A DNA stretch of 62,923 nucleotides, filler included, from Candidatus Fermentibacterota bacterium (GTDB lineage: Bacteria > JAFGKV01), in the NCBI GenBank assembly GCA_016928395.1. It is 5 parts of 5 records of this genome, joined end to end, with 100 filler letters (N's around TTAATTAATTAA, not from the genome) between each part and the next. Parts side by side here need not be neighbours in the genome. Positions count along the whole stretch, not along the records: positions 1 to 27,893 come from JAFGKV010000174.1; 4 more parts are not named here. One strand, 5' to 3'. Of the stretch, positions 15,386 to 47,610 are shown piece after piece. The notes beneath the pieces are model-generated. The model worked only from the letters and a program-made list of their open reading frames with translations, was not told where the DNA came from and did not search any database. Within the stretch, counting starts at the first letter, position 1; each line of letters opens with the position of its first letter. A program made the position numbers and the translations under genes.

Positions 15386-16762
15386 TCAGAGAGGGTAAGC
15401 CGGGCGGCCTCTCACAAGGGGAAGCCCGACAGAATCATCGCCGACAAGACGCCCTCTCTCTGCCACAAGACTCCCCCGAAGATACACTCGCTCGGGAGGA
15501 GAAGCCACCATGCGCCCTTCATAGGGGCTCCACCCTGCCTTTGACACCAGCCTTTGTGCATGTATGGGCATGCGACCCTGAGGGTCAAGGATAACGATGT
15601 CTGCATCGCTGCCAACACCCAGGCTGCCCTTTTGGGGGTACACACCCAAAAGCCGTGCAGGATTGGCCGACATGAGCCGTACCAGATCGGTGATACCGAT
15701 CCTTCCCCCGTGCACTCCCAGCCCGGTCATGACCCGAAGGCTCACCTCCACTCCCGGGATTCCTCCGGGGATACGCGAAAAATCCCCTGCCCACGCATCC
15801 TTGGACGACAGGGAAAATCCGCAGCTATCCGTCGCCACCACGTGCAAATCGCCGGCCGCAACGGCCTGCCACAGGGCGTCAGCGTGAAGCGCCGACCGCA
15901 GTGGAGGAGCGGTGGCATACCTGTGCCCCCCATCCACACCCAGCATCTCCTCAGTCAGCACCAAGTAATGAGGGCAGGTCTCTCCGCTGGCCCAAGCACC
16001 CGAGGCTCGGGCATCGGCCACGTGCCGAATTGAGCCCCCGCATGACAGATGCACAAGATGAATGCGCCCACCGGCGTGGCGAGTGAACGCCAAGACACGG
16101 TAGACCGCCTCCTCTTCAGCTTCCACCGGATGGGATCGCGCCACGGCCAGAGCGCCCTCTCCCCGGCGGCGTGTGGCATCCGATAGAACGCGTACCATTG
16201 CGTCGTTCTCCGCGTGCGCCAAGATGACGAACTCACCCCCGGCCGACGCCTCGATGACCCGGAACAGGGTCTCATCGTCCAGGTAGAGACCGCGCGATCT
16301 GTAGGTGGTGAAGACCTTCACTGAACGGATCTGGCCCGCCAGTGAGAGCACCCTGAGTTCCTCTTCCACTGCCCCGTCCAGCCGAGTGATCATGAGATGC
16401 ACTGCCCAGTCGCATGCGGCGGCCCGCCACGTCTCCCCATGCCGCGCCAGGCTCTCTGACAGGGAGCCTCTCACCTCGGCGAAATCGGCCACGGTAGTCA
16501 CGCCGCCCACCAAAGCCGAGCGCGAACCGGAGGCGACATCGTCTGCCGTTGCGACGCCCTGCGCCTTCAAGAAGAGGTGCACGTGGGGATCAACCACACC
16601 GGGAAGCACCCATAACCCCTCGCACGGGACGATCTCGGCCCCGGTGGAAGAGACGGTGCCGCGGGCGGCAACCGTGCCCGCCTCCACGAGCATGTCTTCA
16701 ACGGTCACACCACCCTCATCGATGATCGATCCCCCCCTGAATACCGTTCGCCGCGGCATCAT
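15386..16762 (-). CDS. Dihydropyrimidinase/hydantoinase-like amidohydrolase
   Basis: LPGVVDPHVH, GGVTTV, HAEN, HLS, GETCPHYL, PPLR, ATDS, SANPA, KGSL.VGSDAD. Confidence 0.88.
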   Translation of the reverse strand: MMPRRTVFRGGSIIDEGGVTVEDMLVEAGTVAARGTVSSTGAEIVPCEGLWVLPGVVDPHVHLFLKAQGVATADDVASGSRSALVGGVTTVADFAEVRGSLSESLARHGETWRAAACDWAVHLMITRLDGAVEEELRVLSLAGQIRSVKVFTTYRSRGLYLDDETLFRVIEASAGGEFVILAHAENDAMVRVLSDATRRRGEGALAVARSHPVEAEEEAVYRVLAFTRHAGGRIHLVHLSCGGSIRHVADARASGAWASGETCPHYLVLTEEMLGVDGGHRYATAPPLRSALHADALWQAVAAGDLHVVATDSCGFSLSSKDAWAGDFSRIPGGIPGVEVSLRVMTGLGVHGGRIGITDLVRLMSANPARLLGVYPQKGSLGVGSDADIVILDPQGRMPIHAQRLVSKAGWSPYEGRMVASPPERVYLRGSLVAERGRLVGDDSVGLPLVRGRPAYPL

Positions 16763-18564
16763 CCCCGGGCCAGACGCAGCCAGGCCCTGGTCTGGGCCGT
16801 GCTGAGGGTGCCACTGACCATCAGAGGAATTTCGTCGGGAACCCGGAACAGCCGTCTGAGACTCCGGGAGAGGGTCTCCTTGGCCGCCTGAAGCCCATCT
16901 TCTCCGACGCTTACCAAGACAACCACCGCAGCCGCTCTTCCCTGGGGCACCGTGCCGACGAGCTTGCGGGCCTCCATTATCTTGGGGCTCATGCTGTCAA
17001 GGACGACCAGATAGGTGGGCGGATAGTGCGACTCCACGGCCCGGCTGAGATCATCCCCCGGAGTCCACGAGGTGGTACCGACGATAACCCATCGGGCACC
17101 TGGCCCCTCCACATGCACCAGATACGCCCATCGATCGCCCTCGGGAATCTTGGGAGCATGCTCCCGCTTTCCCACCAAGGCTTCCACGGTGTCCATGACC
17201 AACGCCGACGACGGTCCCAACACCACAACCGGCGCGGCCTGCGGCAGGGCCGAGGCGATCTCCTCGGGGTAGCCGATAACCCTGGCGATGGGCACCGGCC
17301 TTCCGAATTCCTCCCCGATGGTATTGTCGTCAAGCTGACCCGCTCTCTGATCCCCCCGCGGCCCCTGCGAGGACGGGGAGGCTTCGATCAGCCCTTCATC
17401 CCGCTCCTCTTCGTCTGAACGCATTACGAGTCTGGCCAGCTCATCCACGGTCTCCCTGGTGACCACTGTCCCCCCGAAAGCCCGCATGGCCACAAGCTTG
17501 CGGGCCGCCCCCTCCATGCTCCTCACGTCCGTATCAAGCTTGGAAGCAAGGTAGTCTAGCAAATCGTCACTGATCTCCCACCCTTTCTGCCTCGCCTTGA
17601 GGCGAAGAATCCGCGACCTCAGCGTCGCATCAGGTCGGTCGATCTCCACCACCAAGCCGAACGCGAAGCCGCTGGTCATCTCTTCCGAAAGGGTCTCCAG
17701 TTCCTCGGGCTTTCGGTCGCTGGTGATGAGAATCTGTCTGCCATGCTCGTACATGTCATACAGGATCTCAGCCGCCACCATCTGAAGGCTGGGCGAGATG
17801 GCGAGAAACTGGATGTCGTCGATCATGAGAAGATCCAGTTTGGTATAGGAGCGACGCAGCTCATCCACCTGCCGCTTCTCGTGCGCATCCAGGACCTGTT
17901 GGCTGAAAATCTCCGAGGAGACATACTCGATCTTGGCGTCGGGCTGCCGCACGTGGATCTCATTGGCCAGGGCACACATGAGATGAGTCTTCCCCAGACC
18001 CGAGCCTCCGAACAGAAAGAGAGGGTTGAACCGAGTGCCCGGGCTCTCCGCTGCAGACTTCGCAGCCTCCGCAGCAGAACGATTGCCCACCCCGATGACA
18101 AAGTTGTCAAATCGATACTCCGCCAGGTGACGAAGCCCTTCCACCTCGAAGGGTCCCTGGGACGAAGCGTCGATGCGTTCCCGAACCTCAGCCTTGCGAC
18201 GCAGCATCGATCTGACGCGAGCCACTAGCTCCCGGGGGCTGAAGGGCTTGGTCAAGTAGTCATCGGCACCCAGTTCCAGACCGCGAACCTTGTCATCCTC
18301 CTCCCCCTTCGCGCTCAGCATCATCAGCGGCGTATTTCCCACCAGGCGATCGCTGCGGACACGCCGAATAAGCTCAAAGCCGTCCACCCGGGGCATCATG
18401 ATGTCACTAATGACCAGATCCGGATGCTCCCCCCGGATTACCTCCAACCCCTGCTCTCCATCTTGGGCGGTCAGCACGTCGAATCCGCTCCGCTCGATGG
18501 TGGTCTGCAGGAGTTTGAGGATAAGAGGATCGTCGTCGATGACCAGGATGCGGGCTTCGCTCAT
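16759..18564 (-). CDS. Response regulator fused to a DnaA-type AAA+ domain and a C-terminal degenerate GTPase-like domain
   Basis: Intact receiver (IDDD, SDIMMP, KPF); DnaA domain III motifs YRFDNFVIG..N, NPLFLFGGSGLGKTHL, IDDIQFL, TSDR, VRSMEG; no DnaA domain I or IV. Confidence 0.9.
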   Translation of the reverse strand: MSEARILVIDDDPLILKLLQTTIERSGFDVLTAQDGEQGLEVIRGEHPDLVISDIMMPRVDGFELIRRVRSDRLVGNTPLMMLSAKGEEDDKVRGLELGADDYLTKPFSPRELVARVRSMLRRKAEVRERIDASSQGPFEVEGLRHLAEYRFDNFVIGVGNRSAAEAAKSAAESPGTRFNPLFLFGGSGLGKTHLMCALANEIHVRQPDAKIEYVSSEIFSQQVLDAHEKRQVDELRRSYTKLDLLMIDDIQFLAISPSLQMVAAEILYDMYEHGRQILITSDRKPEELETLSEEMTSGFAFGLVVEIDRPDATLRSRILRLKARQKGWEISDDLLDYLASKLDTDVRSMEGAARKLVAMRAFGGTVVTRETVDELARLVMRSDEEERDEGLIEASPSSQGPRGDQRAGQLDDNTIGEEFGRPVPIARVIGYPEEIASALPQAAPVVVLGPSSALVMDTVEALVGKREHAPKIPEGDRWAYLVHVEGPGARWVIVGTTSWTPGDDLSRAVESHYPPTYLVVLDSMSPKIMEARKLVGTVPQGRAAAVVVLVSVGEDGLQAAKETLSRSLRRLFRVPDEIPLMVSGTLSTAQTRAWLRLARG

Positions 18565-18565
18565 G

Positions 18566-19732
18566 TCAACCCCTATCACGGCCGAGAGCTTCGGCCATCT
18601 TGCCGGGGCGCCGCGGTATCACGAAGCTGAACACGGTACCACGATCAGGACGGCTAGTGACGCGGACGCTCCCTCCGTGAAGTTCCACGAAGTGCTTCAC
18701 GATGGAAAGACCGATGCCCAGGCCTCCATGTTGCCTCCGATCCGAGCTATCCTCCTGCCGGAAAGCCAGAAACAGGTCGCGCAGCTTCTCCTGGGAGAGG
18801 CCCTTGCCCGCATCCGCAACGCTGAAGAGCACCGCTTTGCCCGCATCGCTGATCTCTAAGTCAATAACCCCGCCGGGGGGGCTAAACTTGACCGCATTGG
18901 ACAGTAGATTCTGAAGGGCCTTGCTCAGTTTGGCGCTATCACCGGTAAGCAGACCAGCGCGAGAATCGATGTTGACGCTCACGGCGAAACCGCGGGTGCG
19001 CGCGTCGCGAAGCAGATCATTCACCTTGCCTTGCAGCACATGGTCGGCCGGGAACATCGAGAGCTCCAGGGGCAGCGCACCGGCCTCGGCCTTGGAGAGC
19101 ATCATCAAGTCTTCGATAAGCGCTTTGAGTTGGTTGGAGCTGCGTACGATGTTCCTTGCGAACTCAGCGGTCTTCTCCGGATCGAGACCTCCCGCGGCCA
19201 GGAGTTCAGAATAGCCGATGACCTCGGTGAGGGGGGTACGCAGTTCATGGCTGATGAGTGAGAGAAACTCCGACTTCAATCTGATGGCTTCCTCACTGGA
19301 GCCTCGCAGCGTCTTCACGGCGTCCCTCATCTCCGCCAACTGGACATGCATATCATGGAGATCAACGGCGTGTTCAATGATCGAGGCAAGCTCAAGACGC
19401 CGCAGAGGCCGCTGCAGCACCAGAAAACGGTGGGAACCAAGATCTAGTGCAGCCAAATCGTCCTCCAGCGAGGAGGCTACCACGATCATCAGGGTGTGCG
19501 GGCTCATGGACGCCAGGAGATCCTTCACCTCGACGCAGTGCCCGTCTCTCACCCAAATCTCGCTGAGGATCGCGACGGGTTGTATGCTGTTGAGAAGCTC
19601 GCGCAACAGCGCGACCCTGCCGATCGCATGGACCCGATGGCCCCTGAGCACCTCGTGGGTTGTGTCGACATCGGCATCAGGCAGGCCGAGCAGCACGATG
19701 TCCTTTGGTTCGCCGATGATCCGTTCAGTCAT
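18566..19732 (-). CDS. Cytoplasmic sensor histidine kinase with N-terminal pseudo-receiver domain
   Basis: HisKA FLSLISHELRTPL, HATPase NLLSNAVKF, DAGKG, GGLGIGL; no TM segment. Confidence 0.92.
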   Translation of the reverse strand: MTERIIGEPKDIVLLGLPDADVDTTHEVLRGHRVHAIGRVALLRELLNSIQPVAILSEIWVRDGHCVEVKDLLASMSPHTLMIVVASSLEDDLAALDLGSHRFLVLQRPLRRLELASIIEHAVDLHDMHVQLAEMRDAVKTLRGSSEEAIRLKSEFLSLISHELRTPLTEVIGYSELLAAGGLDPEKTAEFARNIVRSSNQLKALIEDLMMLSKAEAGALPLELSMFPADHVLQGKVNDLLRDARTRGFAVSVNIDSRAGLLTGDSAKLSKALQNLLSNAVKFSPPGGVIDLEISDAGKAVLFSVADAGKGLSQEKLRDLFLAFRQEDSSDRRQHGGLGIGLSIVKHFVELHGGSVRVTSRPDRGTVFSFVIPRRPGKMAEALGRDRG

Positions 19733-20642
19733 GACAGTCTCCGTCGATGCCCGGCCATCGCCGGCCCAGCACGCCGAGGCCGCGCCTCATCACGTTCCAT
19801 CCTGCACCGCATCCCTCCGCCTGTTCGTCCGGTGGGAGGAATCCGAGGAAAACCAATCCCGCCTCGCCTTCGATCCAGATTCGCCCCTCAGGGTCAGGCC
19901 ACACGCGAAGTATGCCGCCCGGCTGTCGTACTCGAGTAACCTCGGATGCAAAGCGGCCTGCCCGCCACGTAGCGGCGGCGGCGGCAGCCGCGCCGCTGCC
20001 GCATGCCCGCGTCCACCCGACGCCCCGCTCCAGAACCTCAAGCTCGATGCTCTCATCCCGCGTGGTGCAGAAGCCCACATTGGCCCCTCCTGCAACTGCG
20101 GAAACAAGCTCCGCAGCCAGCTTCTCCTGTCGTTCTCGGGCTTCGGGGCCATCGAACACGACGATGTGGGGATTGGGCATGAACACCAGTGCCCCGGAGG
20201 CATCCCACGCTCCAAGTATCTCGTCAAGAGCCGGAGATGCCCGAAACCTGGGGATGCCCAGCCCAACCGCGCTCGGGAAGCCAGGGCCAGCTATCTCCAC
20301 AGGAAACACGGCATCGGTGATCCTGAAGCAGATTGACCCCGGCATGAAGAAGCCCAGGTCTCTCCCTCCGACCGCAAGGGCCCGCAGACCGTTGCCGCAG
20401 ACCTCCGCAGTTGACCCGTCCGCATTGAGAAACCAGAGTTCGGGATTGTGAGACGCCCCGTTCCACAGTACGATGCCATCCGCGCCCACGCCCAGTCGGC
20501 GATCGCAGACGCGCGGGGCGCGCCGGCTCATCTCCCGCACCGAGTTCGAAGCGGCGGGGTCAAGTATCCAGATAAGATCGTTGCCCAGCGCCTCTACCTT
20601 GGCAAATGGAGTGAGGCCTGGAGGAAACCGACTACGATCCAT
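19725..20642 (-). CDS. dapF: Diaminopimelate epimerase
   Basis: ALGND, DRRLGVGADG, NADGSTAEVCGNGLR, PNPH, ERGVG.T.ACGSG (both catalytic Cys). Confidence 0.9.
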   Translation of the reverse strand: MDRSRFPPGLTPFAKVEALGNDLIWILDPAASNSVREMSRRAPRVCDRRLGVGADGIVLWNGASHNPELWFLNADGSTAEVCGNGLRALAVGGRDLGFFMPGSICFRITDAVFPVEIAGPGFPSAVGLGIPRFRASPALDEILGAWDASGALVFMPNPHIVVFDGPEARERQEKLAAELVSAVAGGANVGFCTTRDESIELEVLERGVGWTRACGSGAAAAAAATWRAGRFASEVTRVRQPGGILRVWPDPEGRIWIEGEAGLVFLGFLPPDEQAEGCGAGWNVMRRGLGVLGRRWPGIDGDCHD

Positions 20643-20902
20643 AGAATACTCTTGGGGTGAGTCCTTTCCCCCGCACAAACGCACCGCCGACGGCATGCCC
20701 ACGGCACCCGCTGATCCTCTTCGTACGCCGGCTTCTGTGGGGCTTCACCCCCATGGCTGTCCCCTTGACACGCCGAGCCGTATCGCACGATGGTCCTTCG
20801 GAGGCTGGGAGGGTGATTCCGGCGACCAGTCCTCGTCGCTGTGGATAGTGGTGGGGCGCATAGAATCACACATCGCGTCACCTCGGGTTCTCAAACCAGA
20901 CG

Positions 20903-22321
20903 TCATGGTGACCAATGTACGCGATGAACATCCCCGGGGGAAGCATCAAGAAGTGCCGAAAGGCCAGGCACATCCGGACGGCCGCATGCCTCTATCTCTC
21001 CGCACAGCAACCTGACAGCAGCCTCTTGGGAAGCTGTTGTCGCATCCCCGGCCAAGATCAGTGACATGCGTCCCGCCAGACATCGCGCAGCGTTCAAGGC
21101 GCCGCAGGCCAGTATCACAGGGGCTATTCCCCTCGGTTCTTTGGCTTCGTCAGCCGCCGCCAGCACCGCGGCCGTGGCGGATACCCCGGAGACTGCCACA
21201 AGGGGCATGCCTGCCGGATGCAGAGCGTCCCGCTGCCGCAGCGCGGCCTGCAGGGGACGGGCCCACCCACACTCACCGGCCCGATCAGGTACTATGCGCA
21301 AAGATGCCGGAATGCGGGATCCCATCGGCGGCGGCTTGCACCCTACCCAGGCCACCGCGTGTTCCGCGATCTCCCGGGCCAACACCTCCTCACCCATGCC
21401 CTCGCCGATGGTCTCGGAATCCCTGACCGCGACACCCCCAGAGGAGTGCCCAAAGCCCAGATCAGGCCCGATAACAAGATCAGCCCCCGCCTCCAGCGCA
21501 GCCGCGGCAACCGTGGTATCGTTCCCTCCGGCGCCCGCCATCTCCAGGCTGTCGGTCAGGATGATGCCCTCGAAACCCAACTCCTCACGCAGCAGAACCC
21601 GCAGGATGGCGGGGCTCAGCGATGCCGGCCTCCGAGGCCCAGGATCCAGACTCTCGCTCCATAGGTGTCCCACCATGACCGCGCCAACTCCCGCGCCTAT
21701 GGCCTTCTCAAAGGGAATCGCATCACTCCTCATCCACTCATCATAGCCAACCTCGAGATGAGGCAGGTGGTGATGGGAGTCCTCCTGACTTCGCCCGTGA
21801 CCGGGGAAGTGTTTCGCCGCAGCCATAATGCCTTCACCCTGGCACCCTCTCACAAATGCCTCTACCATGGCACTGACCCTGGCGGGAGTCGCGCCAAAAC
21901 TCCTCGTGCCGATGACGGAACTTGTGCCCGAGAACAGCAGATCCGCCACCGGCGCGAGAATCATGTCCAGTCCGAGAGCCTTGGCGTGCCCGGCAATGGT
22001 CTCTCCCATCAGCCGCGCACAACCAGGAGACCCCGTCGCTCCGACGGTGAAGGCCTTGGGAAGCCACCGGTAGCCTGCCACCTGGCTTGCGGCCCCTTGC
22101 TCGAAGTCCGCCATGAGCAGTGGCCGGGGGTGGCACATGGTTCGGGCCTCGTCGGCCACTCGCCGCCACTCATCAGCCCGACCGCGCCGCAGGAGTACGC
22201 CTCCGAGCCCGTGGGCACGGGCTATGCCGAGTATGTTCTGCCAGACTGCCTGCCAGTCCGGCACGGACAGGTCAAGTACAGGCACCAGATGTCGGTACAG
22301 TGAATCTGGAACCTGCCTCAT
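20903..22321 (-). CDS. nagZ: GH3 beta-N-acetylhexosaminidase (NagZ-like)
   Basis: ADFEQG, APVAD, RSFG, KHFPGHG..EDSH, MVGH, LREELGFEGIILTDSLEM; ATGA overlap with ldcA. Confidence 0.85.
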   Translation of the reverse strand: MRQVPDSLYRHLVPVLDLSVPDWQAVWQNILGIARAHGLGGVLLRRGRADEWRRVADEARTMCHPRPLLMADFEQGAASQVAGYRWLPKAFTVGATGSPGCARLMGETIAGHAKALGLDMILAPVADLLFSGTSSVIGTRSFGATPARVSAMVEAFVRGCQGEGIMAAAKHFPGHGRSQEDSHHHLPHLEVGYDEWMRSDAIPFEKAIGAGVGAVMVGHLWSESLDPGPRRPASLSPAILRVLLREELGFEGIILTDSLEMAGAGGNDTTVAAAALEAGADLVIGPDLGFGHSSGGVAVRDSETIGEGMGEEVLAREIAEHAVAWVGCKPPPMGSRIPASLRIVPDRAGECGWARPLQAALRQRDALHPAGMPLVAVSGVSATAAVLAAADEAKEPRGIAPVILACGALNAARCLAGRMSLILAGDATTASQEAAVRLLCGEIEACGRPDVPGLSALLDASPGDVHRVHWSP

Positions 22322-23262
22322 ACCACGCCTGGCTGGAGTAAGCGCAGCACGTGATTGTCCGCATCGAGCTCGGCACGGCAGCCCTGTGGCCACGTGGCGA
22401 TGTCACGCTGGTGGCCGACTGCAAGACCGTACACGGTGGGGATGCCAAGACTCCCGATTCGTTCGGCAATCACGTCGATTATCTCACGCTCCGATAGTTT
22501 GTAGCACTCATGGAAGCGACCACACGCCACGCCCGCCACATCCTCGAACCGCCCGGAGAGAATGAGCTGTGTCAGCATTCGGTCTACCCGGTAGGGCGCC
22601 TCCCCAACATCCTCCAGAATCACGATTCGCTGTCGTAACTGCAACTCCCACGGCGTACCCATCAGCGACACCAACGTCGCCAGATTGCCGCCAACAAGGG
22701 CGCCTCGGGCACGACCCCCCCGAATGACCACCGGAGCAGGATCGCCGGGAGCATGGGAGATGGTCACGCCCGGCCCACCCTCTCCCACCGCGGCCCAGAA
22801 TCCGGAAGCCGCCCACTGGGTAAGCCTCGCCTGGCGGCCGAAAGCAGGCATGGGACCGGCGAAGGTAACGACATCGCATCGGAGGGCAGCGGCCTGAAAT
22901 GCCGTCACGTCCGACATCCCGACAAAGACCTTGGGGTGCCGTCGCACCAGGCTCCAGTCCACGTGAGGGAGCAACCGTATGGTGCCATAGCCACCCCGGA
23001 TCGAGATCACTCCCTTGACCGACGAGTCGCTGAATGCCCAATGGAGGTCGGAAAGCCGCTCATCGTCGGCTCCCGCCAGAAAGCGAGAGCGCCTCGCCGC
23101 ATGGGGACCAAGTACGGGATCGAGCCCCAGTGCCCTCGTGGCTTCTGCGGCTCTGCGCAACATACCGCGGGACGCAGTCGGGCTGGCAGGACATACGAGA
23201 GCCACCGCGTCACCCGGACGGAGGGCGGGCGGCCTGATCAGGCGCTTAGCTGCGGAGTGCAC
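22318..23262 (-). CDS. ldcA: LD-carboxypeptidase (S66 family, LdcA-like)
   Basis: LAG.D.ER..DL, RGGYG, GMSDVT nucleophile, GGNL, LEDVGE.PYRVDRML, GH; GTG start refined. Confidence 0.9.
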   Translation of the reverse strand: MHSAAKRLIRPPALRPGDAVALVCPASPTASRGMLRRAAEATRALGLDPVLGPHAARRSRFLAGADDERLSDLHWAFSDSSVKGVISIRGGYGTIRLLPHVDWSLVRRHPKVFVGMSDVTAFQAAALRCDVVTFAGPMPAFGRQARLTQWAASGFWAAVGEGGPGVTISHAPGDPAPVVIRGGRARGALVGGNLATLVSLMGTPWELQLRQRIVILEDVGEAPYRVDRMLTQLILSGRFEDVAGVACGRFHECYKLSEREIIDVIAERIGSLGIPTVYGLAVGHQRDIATWPQGCRAELDADNHVLRLLQPGVV

Positions 23263-24331
23263 TCCCTGTCGACGGATCGAAGAGGTGGGCCTTAGAGAGC
23301 AAAAGGGTGACTCGGACGCGCTCCGCCACACGGTAGTGCCCGGCTCCCACTTGACGGGCCGTCATGCGGACGCTGCCCAGATCAAAATGGAGATAGGTCT
23401 CGTGTCCCATGGGTTCTACGACCTCCAGCACCACGTCCAAAGGTGCACCGCCGCCATCTCCGCTGGCGATGTCTTCAGGCCGGATCCCCAGGATTACGGG
23501 AGTGCCGCCAGTCAAGGCAAGACCGTGGGTCAATGATTCGGGCAGCGACGCCTGGAGGCCGGGCGCATCAAAGACCCACGGTGGGCCTGTCAGTGCCCCT
23601 GGGATCAAGTTGATCGCCGGGCTGCCGATGAAACCGGCAACGAAGGTGTTGGCAGGGCGGTCATACAGCTTCAACGGATCGTCGATCTGCTGGATGAACC
23701 CATCCTTGAGCACCACGATTCGATCGCCCATGGTCATCGCCTCGGTCTGATCGTGGGTGACATAGATCATGGTGGCGTTCAGCCTTCGATGGAGGCCGGA
23801 AAGCTCGGCTCGCATCTGAACCCTCAGCTTGGCATCCAGGTTCGACAACGGTTCATCAAACAGGAAGACCTTTGGATGGCGCACAATGGCCCTGCCCACG
23901 GCTACCCGCTGCCTCTGGCCTCCGGAGAGTGCCTTTGGCTTTCGAGAGAGAAACTCGCCGATGCCCAGGATCGCCGCTGCCTCTTTCACGCGGTGATCGA
24001 TCTCGTTCCGCGTGAATTTCCGCATTCGGAGGCCAAACGCCATGTTTTCATAGACCGACATGTGAGGATAGAGGGCATAGTTCTGAAACACCATGGCGAT
24101 GTCTCGGTCTTTCGGCGGCACCTTGTTGACGACCAGATCATCGATGAGGACTCTCCCCTCGGAGATCTCCTCCAGCCCCGCGACCATCCGTAAAAGTGTG
24201 GATTTGCCGCATCCGGAAGGCCCGACAAGAACGACAAACTCCCTGTCGCGCACCTCAAAGCTGGCATCCCGCACGGCCACAACCCCACCCGGGTATCGCT
24301 TCGTTACATTCTCCAGCGTCACCTTCGCCAT
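23246..24331 (-). CDS. Sugar ABC transporter ATP-binding protein (MsmX/MsiK/UgpC family)
   Basis: GPSGCGKST, AMVFQNYALYPHM, LSGGQRQR, DEPLSNLDAKLR, FIGSP and TOBE domain; no permease nearby. Confidence 0.93.
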   Translation of the reverse strand: MAKVTLENVTKRYPGGVVAVRDASFEVRDREFVVLVGPSGCGKSTLLRMVAGLEEISEGRVLIDDLVVNKVPPKDRDIAMVFQNYALYPHMSVYENMAFGLRMRKFTRNEIDHRVKEAAAILGIGEFLSRKPKALSGGQRQRVAVGRAIVRHPKVFLFDEPLSNLDAKLRVQMRAELSGLHRRLNATMIYVTHDQTEAMTMGDRIVVLKDGFIQQIDDPLKLYDRPANTFVAGFIGSPAINLIPGALTGPPWVFDAPGLQASLPESLTHGLALTGGTPVILGIRPEDIASGDGGGAPLDVVLEVVEPMGHETYLHFDLGSVRMTARQVGAGHYRVAERVRVTLLLSKAHLFDPSTGSALRS

Positions 24332-27893: not shown

Positions 27894-27993
27894 NNNNNNN
27901 NNNNNNNNNNNNNNNNNNNNNNNNNNNNNNNNNNNNNTTAATTAATTAANNNNNNNNNNNNNNNNNNNNNNNNNNNNNNNNNNNNNNNNNNNN
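27894..27993. other. Artificial contig spacer (N run with TTAATTAATTAA)
   Basis: 100-nt N run with a six-frame stop linker at 27938-27949. Confidence 0.99.
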
Positions 27994-36036: not shown

Positions 36037-36136
36037 NNNNNNNNNNNNNNNNNNNNNNNNNNNNNNNNNNNNNNNNNNNNTTAATTAATTAANNNNNNNN
36101 NNNNNNNNNNNNNNNNNNNNNNNNNNNNNNNNNNNN
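36037..36136. other. Artificial contig spacer
   Basis: N run with TTAATTAATTAA. Confidence 0.99.
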
Positions 36137-42445: not shown

Positions 42446-42545
42446 NNNNNNNNNNNNNNNNNNNNNNNNNNNNNNNNNNNNNNNNNNNNTTAATTAATTA
42501 ANNNNNNNNNNNNNNNNNNNNNNNNNNNNNNNNNNNNNNNNNNNN
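42446..42545. other. Artificial contig spacer
   Basis: N run with TTAATTAATTAA. Confidence 0.99.
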
Positions 42546-47510: not shown

Positions 47511-47610
47511 NNNNNNNNNNNNNNNNNNNNNNNNNNNNNNNNNNNNNNNNNNNNTTAATTAATTAANNNNNNNNNNNNNNNNNNNNNNNNNNNNNNNNNN
47601 NNNNNNNNNN
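47511..47610. other. Artificial contig spacer
   Basis: N run with TTAATTAATTAA. Confidence 0.99.

Follow-up and report, generated by a model that had tools for sequence, protein, structure and literature searches.

A response regulator with a finger-less DnaA-type ATPase module and a C-terminal pseudo-GTPase domain in an uncultured bacterial phylum

In the DnaA clade of AAA+ proteins, ATP hydrolysis and ATP-dependent stacking need the neighbour's arginine. Hda binds the clamp through an N-terminal motif and donates an arginine finger to DnaA-ATP. In NtrC-type regulators, phosphorylation controls AAA+ assembly, and in the clamp loader (δ and δ′) and the origin recognition complex (ORC) a finger-less or ATP-less protomer sits only at one end of the assembly. 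Here we describe a gene in a 62,923-nucleotide stretch of DNA (filler included; hereafter the window) from a Candidatus Fermentibacterota bacterium (GenBank assembly GCA_016928395.1). Its product, hereafter the regulator, is composed of a receiver (REC), a DnaA domain III-type AAA+ module and a C-terminal Ras-like pseudo-GTPase domain (Table 1). It is a genuine response regulator and not a replication initiator. The AAA+ module retains the residues of its own ATP site and has lost the arginines that DnaA offers to a neighbour.

The AAA+ module aligns without gaps with domain III of Bacillus subtilis DnaA (PDB 8bv3) over residues 154-367 (phmmer, E 1.1e-49). Its predicted fold is superimposable on 8bv3_A with a template modelling (TM) score of 0.90 (target-normalised) and a root-mean-square deviation (rmsd) of 2.0 Å over 228 columns at 38% identity, so the structure-guided comparison agrees with the sequence alignment. 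A preliminary description, made by eye from the sequence, had marked positions 17420-18130, which correspond to residues ~150-387 and thus to the AAA+ module with its lid. All six motifs that it placed there are found at those places, on the minus strand of the open reading frame (ORF) at 16759-18579. For comparison with Escherichia coli, the numbering was set by aligning K-12 DnaA taken from NC_000913.3. On the cis side of the ATP site, K178, E204, D235/D236, D269 and R334 of E. coli DnaA correspond to K197, E223, D254/D255, D288 and R353 of the regulator. Walker A, Walker B, sensor I and the sensor II arginine are retained, as the preliminary description had claimed. In box VII, LEDRLRSRF of B. 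subtilis DnaA lies over LSEEMTSGF. In particular, E300 and G304 take the places of R281 and of the arginine finger R285 in the gapless alignments with both 8bv3 and E. coli DnaA, and neither alignment places an arginine at the finger position.

The claim that the residues for binding single-stranded DNA, K243 and R245, are lost stands in part. K243 is replaced by S262, and the start of the QEEFFH helix is replaced as well (GKEQTQEEFFH over ISPSLQMVAAE). R245 corresponds to S264, but here B. subtilis DnaA has Q, Thermotoga maritima DnaA has G and the canonical DnaA of this organism has S. Since the position varies among genuine DnaAs, the absence of R245 alone says little. The alignments point to the loss of K243 together with the replaced helix start as the diagnostic difference. 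The equivalent of V211, L230, remains hydrophobic.

A protein search yields 46 full-length homologues of 586-651 amino acids. Alignment A1 contains 46 rows, the query and 45 homologues that are 44-78% identical to it, and leaves out P0002, a database copy identical to the query. Homologues with a named source are labelled Candidatus Eisenbacteria. Database names that members bear, such as "OmpR family regulator" and "chromosomal replication initiator protein", are corrected by these results. Walker A K197/T198, Walker B D254/D255, sensor I D288 and sensor II R353 are present in all 46 rows. E223, kept outside this tally, is Glu in 46 of 50 members (the 46 rows and four more). Position 230 is L, V, M or I in 43 of the 46 rows. 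The finger position, in contrast to the cis residues, has lost its arginine in most rows (17 G, 11 A, 7 R, 6 S, 3 E, 1 C and 1 D), and the R281 position is E in 40 rows and G in 6. The S-x-S-L-Q segment in place of the DnaA B-motif is near-invariant (S262 46/46, S264 42/46, Q266 46/46). The catalytic residues of the receiver are conserved across the 50 members (D15 49/50, D16 48/50, D59 48/50, S/T89 49/50, K111 48/50).

Set against DNA contigs of a related strain, which come from another study, the gene shows 11 listed differences, all of them synonymous third-position changes; the three contigs carry 15 differences in total, and the listing covers those away from contig ends. The conservation over 46 rows and the synonymous-only listed strain differences indicate that the substitutions are ancient and maintained, with the replacement residues themselves conserved. 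They are family-wide and do not reflect strain-specific decay, which the preliminary description had allowed for. The same columns argue that the asymmetry between the cis and trans halves of the ATP site is real and under selection. The family, found in an uncultured bacterial phylum, is small, conserved and apparently undescribed. A literature search, with subscription journals outside its scope, found no paper on a REC-DnaA fusion, a DnaA expansion in Eisenbacteria or an MshEN-DnaA protein. A pattern search of genome contigs with A1, in which the patterns included a generic receiver motif, kept 80 loci; these are ordinary response regulators or DnaA genes of other phyla, and none was used.

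The C-terminal domain occupies the place of DnaA domain IV. A Pfam scan of the regulator finds no DnaA_N (domain I), no Bac_DnaA_C (domain IV, PF08299) and no match over residues 392-606. Residues 415-606 were modelled by AF2 with the family alignment, with a predicted local distance difference test (pLDDT) score of 94.1 and a predicted TM score (pTM) of 0.91. The best match in the VIA search is Sar1 (6vs4_B; Z 10.6, rmsd 4.0 Å over 156 residues). G domains, small GTPases among them, make up most of the 50 matches shown (Z 8.0-10.6); examples are Rag, Rheb, Arf, EngB and MglA. Foldseek gives a best E value of 1.2e-5, with matches at about 1e-5 to 1e-4, probability 1.00 and TM scores of 0.4-0.6. 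The strand and helix order is the same as in the small Ras-superfamily/TRAFAC G domains (Sar1, Arf, Rag, MglA, EngB/YsxC), but identity is at most 14%, TM scores are just 0.4-0.6, and the nucleotide motifs are absent. The position of the P-loop (G1) reads VVVLGPSSALV, with LGPSSALVMDT following strand 1, and contains neither a lysine nor GK[ST]. The family consensus is VVVLGxSxALVxDT, so that G1 becomes G-x-S-x-x-L-V. In the sequence and the family alignment, NKxD (G4) is not found and DxxG is replaced by D-S-x-S-P. The domain has the fold of small GTPases but neither their G1 GxxxxGK[ST] nor their G4 NKxD, and it is not counted among them. The match of the model to the G-domain fold is of moderate strength, and the domain is best called a pseudo-GTPase. 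A search against 1.84 billion representatives returns 14 clusters, all of them this family or its fragments, and among the 121 proteins P0001-P0121 the domain occurs only in P0001-P0051.

The full-length AlphaFold model has a pLDDT of 87 and a pTM of 0.81, and the domains seem to pack together in it. A complex prediction for the AAA+ module with the C-terminal domain gives an interaction prediction score from aligned errors (ipSAE) of 0.57, compared with 0.00 for the best control. This score counts as weak support. Of 157 solved complexes, 116 pass the ipSAE mark, as do 2 of 215 mismatches, and scores of 0.60 or less comprise only 18 of those 157 complexes along with both passing mismatches. 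Across the runs, contacts agree in at least 0% and partner pLDDT is at least 81.

A cytoplasmic histidine kinase gene lies directly upstream of the regulator gene in all three syntenic loci (the window and two other genomes). The junction between the two genes reads TGA-C-ATG, and the stop codon of the regulator overlaps the start codon of the downstream amidohydrolase gene (ATGA). By these junctions, the three genes are translationally coupled. The upstream kinase is the putative cognate of the regulator, and phosphotransfer between them is predicted. With the acidic pocket, Asp, Thr/Ser and Lys of its receiver and an adjoining kinase gene, the regulator has what defines a two-component response regulator.

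Comparison with the described systems places the regulator outside each of their families. DnaA structures (PDB 8bv3, 8btg, 2z4r and 1l8q/2hcb/3r8f) share its fold (38% identity across ATPase module and lid) together with Walker A and B, the catalytic Glu, sensors I and II and the initiator-specific helical insert. However, the regulator has no domains I and II and no domain IV helix-turn-helix (HTH), carries the changes R285 to G, R281 to E, K243 to S and QEEFFH to LQxVAA, and coexists with a separate canonical dnaA in the genome. It scores 253.9 bits against TIGR00362, below the cutoff of 343.9, and is not a DnaA initiator. Hda/HdaA, which serves the regulatory inactivation of DnaA, is likewise from the DnaA clade of AAA+ proteins and lacks domain IV; its target is another AAA+ protomer, not DNA boxes, and NCBI calls some members of the family "DnaA/Hda family protein". 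The regulator has the opposite polarity, an ATP site without a finger. Its finger position is Gly, and its N-terminus is a receiver in which no QL-type β-clamp-binding motif is found by a simple pattern search. The Hda structure 3bos is 20% identical to it, and the Pfam Hda_lid model scores 16.7 bits against a cutoff of 27. Membership of the Hda family is rejected accordingly.

NtrC, NtrC1 and NtrX share the layout of an N-terminal receiver followed by an AAA+ module, with a histidine kinase as partner. Foldseek matches of the full-length model include NtrX, NtrC1, NtrC4 and LuxO, but the global superposition is poor (TM ~0.26). The NtrC-type proteins belong to the sigma-54 activator clade, whereas the AAA+ module of the regulator belongs to the initiator/DnaA clade and its C-terminus is a pseudo-GTPase domain rather than an HTH. 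The Pfam scan finds no Sigma54_activat domain (the AAA+ domain with the GAFTGA loop), and the AAA+ match is of the Bac_DnaA type, which excludes an NtrC-type activator. Clamp-loader δ/δ′ and the ORC end subunits would share with the regulator the logic of half an ATP site; there is no homology beyond the AAA+ fold, and their stoichiometry is fixed. By analogy, the regulator resembles REC-AAA+ regulators in layout and heteromeric AAA+ end subunits in logic.

The regulator is not the only protein of its kind in the genome. The collection contains three species genomes of the phylum, and each encodes four copies of the REC, DnaA and pseudo-GTPase architecture. The finger residues of the four copies are G/R/S/G, G/R/A/G and E/G/R/G, i.e. 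one Arg copy in each genome. Two other paralogue groups adjoin a PAS hybrid kinase and a cyclic nucleotide monophosphate (cNMP)-binding kinase, respectively, and the fourth, Arg-bearing group has no adjacent kinase. In both genomes of one genus, canonical dnaA lies ~12-14 kb from the group B paralogue, which is the one beside the PAS hybrid kinase.

Bac_DnaA matches number 14 in this genome and 10 and 12 in the sister genomes. The 14 include one canonical DnaA, four MshEN fusions, two short REC-DnaA proteins and two weak IstB-like matches, and about ten of the DnaA-module proteins in the genome are non-initiators. The canonical DnaA has domain IV (PF08299, E 3.2e-26) and an intact EQRLISRF motif. 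The tree of ATPase modules unites the REC-fused modules with two of the MshEN-fused ones in a supported clade (98 in the Shimodaira-Hasegawa-like approximate likelihood ratio test, SH-aLRT) in which the finger is mostly lost, and the loss is specific to this clade. The regulator is one member of a lineage-specific expansion of DnaA modules fused to signalling domains.

The fusions of an MshEN/T2SSE_N-type domain to a DnaA ATPase are encoded by three consecutive genes at C299:74936-84338 (L001, L003, L114) and one gene at C108:1381-2628 (L115) of this genome (G000). One of these proteins has two DnaA modules split by a long coiled coil. One extends over more than 1300 amino acids to the contig end; its SRF box VII is intact and its coiled-coil tail very long. 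Two are without the finger (SGL, SQF). The short REC-DnaA proteins, at C150:18815-20041 (L112) and C311:5268-6782 (L113) of the same genome, have ~406 and ~504 amino acids and no pseudo-GTPase domain. Their finger positions are L and V, so the finger is absent. The C311 copy has His at the phospho-acceptor position and Ile at the position of the conserved Lys; therefore, its receiver is probably a pseudo-receiver.

Proteins with tandem Bac_DnaA modules occur among P0052-P0121 (~630-830 amino acids, two ATPase modules, no domain IV). The few with a named source are labelled Gemmatimonadota, and one also has DUF4388. Pfam was run on five of them, from other phyla (P0052, P0059, P0069, P0071 and P0100), and all ten modules keep both arginines. 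The tandem-DnaA proteins are a second non-initiator DnaA architecture.

The simplest reading of these data is an acceptor-only protomer, because the ATP site has its cis half frozen, the residues for hydrolysis included, while its trans half is gone and in part reversed in charge. We tentatively favour, at a little short of even confidence, a phosphorylation-gated ATP-binding protomer that accepts an arginine finger but cannot donate one. We infer that the adjacent kinase would phosphorylate D59 and so gate the ATP-dependent pairing of the ATP face with a finger-bearing DnaA-type partner. The finger-less face, with its conserved Glu, would then stop further growth of the assembly, and the pseudo-GTPase domain would serve as an effector, docking or output surface in place of domain IV. 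Candidate donors in the same genome would be the Arg-bearing paralogue, an MshEN-DnaA protein and DnaA itself. Possible donors do exist, with exactly one Arg paralogue in each of the three genomes and an SRF motif kept by canonical DnaA and one MshEN-DnaA protein. The preliminary description had proposed an accept-but-not-donate domain as expected for a cap or decoy of the DnaA filament. Its first half agrees with the invariant cis residues and the loss of the box VII arginines, but DnaA is only one of several possible targets.

Several observations weigh against this reading. Arg is present at the finger position in 8 of the 50 members. On the tree, these eight are one clade of five and three single rows, which needs at least four changes, and since Arg recurs in at least four places the finger-less state is not absolute. 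The strictly conserved S-x-S-L-Q segment and E300 suggest a new function, for which an acceptor-only protomer gives no account. In the complex prediction of the AAA+ module with the C-terminal domain, one run out of three scored 0.00, and the prediction gave no interface. The pattern of one Arg copy per genome rests on three related genomes, and the Arg copy of one of them (G002) belongs to a different clade. Donor contact, ATP binding and hydrolysis, and phosphotransfer are predictions.

A self-contained nucleotide switch, which the preliminary description had named as its alternative, fits as well as a cap or decoy of DnaA, yet as the full account we rate it unlikely. Here the AAA+ module would never oligomerise canonically; ATP or ADP would set its conformation, in a STAND-like or monomeric manner, and together with REC phosphorylation would expose the pseudo-GTPase domain to an unrelated effector. 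The replacement of both trans arginines by Glu and a small residue looks like negative design against stacking, and the compact full-length model, the docking score of the AAA+ module with the C-terminal domain and the restriction of that domain to this family all agree with such a switch. However, the conserved catalytic Glu, sensor I and sensor II argue that hydrolysis matters, hydrolysis in this AAA+ clade normally needs a finger in trans, and an Arg-bearing paralogue is kept in each of the three genomes. A signal-controlled cap or decoy of the DnaA filament, an idea that would be attractive as a version of the finger-accepting protomer with DnaA as the donor, is also rather unlikely. The phosphorylated regulator would join the end of an ATP-DnaA oligomer at oriC by its ATP face, block extension, and block or tune unwinding. 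The module is most closely related to DnaA domain III (38% identity) and not to Hda (20%), its ATP face is conserved and its finger face disabled with charge reversal at R281, and a group B paralogue lies near canonical dnaA in two genomes of one genus. In addition, the response regulators CtrA, Spo0A and MtrA control initiation in other bacteria, and the R285A variant of E. coli DnaA still binds ATP yet fails to open oriC. Against a cap or decoy, the regulator has no domain I or IV to bring it to oriC or DnaA; a single target would hardly call for four paralogues, two short REC forms and four MshEN fusions; its gene neighbours are of cell-wall, pyrimidine-type, lipopolysaccharide/exopolysaccharide (LPS/EPS) and surface-protein type and not replication genes; and the surface formed by the initiator-specific motif (ISM) and B-motif has conserved residues of its own, unlike that of DnaA.

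Loss of the finger might alternatively be without functional consequence if the regulator were a homo-oligomeric ATPase that uses another basic residue in trans, e.g. R289, R321 or a lid arginine. R289 is conserved in 44 of the 46 rows and R321 in all 46. But R321 corresponds to E. coli DnaA R302 (an invariant column of alignment A3) and R289 is part of the shared TSDR motif; as both are already shared with DnaA, they are not new compensating residues. A1 contains no family-specific arginine near box VII, and this possibility appears improbable. That the gene is a decaying, non-functional duplicate of dnaA would account for the loss of residues essential in DnaA. We give this reading virtually no weight and reject it on the conservation data: the ORF is uninterrupted, each of the three domains has family-specific residues that stay invariant in homologues as distant as 44% identity, all three genomes retain four copies each, and the listed strain differences are all synonymous.

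On a wider and distinctly speculative view, the phylum may have recruited the ATPase module of DnaA as a general output for signalling. Finger-less fusions to REC (two-component) and MshEN (possible cyclic di-GMP) would compete for, or cap, the few finger donors including DnaA, and would thereby wire environmental and envelope signals onto the initiation filament without a DNA-binding regulator. Response regulators are known to control replication via oriC DNA, and using the initiator's own module for oligomerisation and ATPase activity as the output would be a different and more direct route. With the cis half frozen, the trans half discarded and one Arg paralogue per genome, the family provides a natural experiment on the two-part ATP site of AAA+ proteins and a tractable model for the evolution of heteromeric, polarity-defined AAA+ assemblies from a homo-oligomeric ancestor. 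To two-component signalling, the combination of a DnaA module with a pseudo-GTPase adds an output architecture of which we found no description.

Table 1 Features of the regulator and its surroundings. Positions count along the window unless a genome and contig are given.
Feature	Position	Strand	Residues and basis
Whole ORF	16759..18579	(-)	606 codons from GTG; ORF list
Receiver (REC)	18211..18549	(-)	11-123; phospho-acceptor D59 with D15/D16, S89 and K111; Pfam Response_reg (PF00072), E 6.4e-33
REC-to-AAA+ linker with invariant G-P-F motif	18121..18177	(-)	P143, F144; invariant columns of A1
DnaA-type AAA+ module with lid	17407..18120	(-)	154-391; Pfam Bac_DnaA (PF00308), E 9.4e-49 over 154-312
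Walker A GGSGLGKT	17986..18009	(-)	191-198
Walker B DDIQ	17809..17820	(-)	254-257
ISPSLQMVAAE, replacing the DnaA K243/R245 B-motif and QEEFFH helix start	17767..17799	(-)	261-271; family-specific; alignment to E. coli DnaA
Sensor I TSDR	17713..17724	(-)	286-289; D288 = E. coli D269
Box VII remnant SEEMTSGF	17665..17688	(-)	298-305; E300 for R281, G304 for finger R285
Sensor II DVRSMEG	17509..17529	(-)	351-357; R353 = E. coli R334
Acidic low-confidence linker	17332..17406	(-)	392-416; pLDDT <50 in full-length model; gappy in A1, length varies among homologues
C-terminal Ras/Arf/EngB-like α/β domain without P-loop lysine	16762..17331	(-)	in place of DnaA domain IV
Cytoplasmic histidine kinase (HisKA and HATPase_c)	18566..19732	(-)	Pfam; stop 1 nt before regulator ATG
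Dihydropyrimidinase/hydantoinase-like amidohydrolase	15386..16762	(-)	Pfam; downstream of regulator in 3/3 loci
Subtilase, 778 amino acids	13004..15340	(-)	
dnaA / group B paralogue pair	G000 C126:8181-9605 and C126:21675-23489; G001 C168:16827-17306 and C168:2633-3106		

Translation of the regulator likely starts at the ATG at 18564, which gives 601 amino acids. The identical database protein P0002 has this length, the TGA-C-ATG junction places the ATG next to the kinase stop codon, and AGGGG lies 7-11 nucleotides upstream of the ATG.

The window consists of several contigs joined together: C218 supplies positions 1-27893, and after it come C221, C222, an unplaced piece and C224, with spacers (paired 44-N) at 27894-27993, 36037-36136, 42446-42545 and 47511-47610. 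No window sequence past 27893 is physically linked to the regulator gene. Two metatranscriptome runs, belonging to the study that also yielded the likely source sample, contain a 151-nucleotide contig inside the regulator gene (16902-17052) and three contigs in neighbouring genes, all at very low depth and with DNA carry-over possible. Transcription of the regulator gene is not shown by these two runs, and the uncovered parts prove nothing.

The neighbours of the regulator gene encode a GH3 glycosidase, an LD-carboxypeptidase, a diaminopimelate (DAP) epimerase, the dihydropyrimidinase-like amidohydrolase and the subtilase, with no replication gene among them. The amidohydrolase scores 341 bits against NCBIfam TIGR02033, for which the cutoff is 393. 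The first ~150 residues of the kinase (19283-19732, minus strand) give one weak match to the NtrC4 receiver (E 0.006), and by eye there is no obvious Asp at the acceptor position; this N-terminus may be a pseudo-receiver input domain. Upstream, at 19725-23331 on the minus strand, genes for the LD-carboxypeptidase (S66), the NagZ-like GH3 glycosidase and the DAP epimerase form an overlapping same-strand string that ends in the kinase-regulator pair and looks like a peptidoglycan-recycling set. A second genus (L105) shares the order GH3-DapF-kinase-regulator-amidohydrolase-subtilase, and so does a further locus, L101, over the stretch that was checked there (DapF to subtilase).

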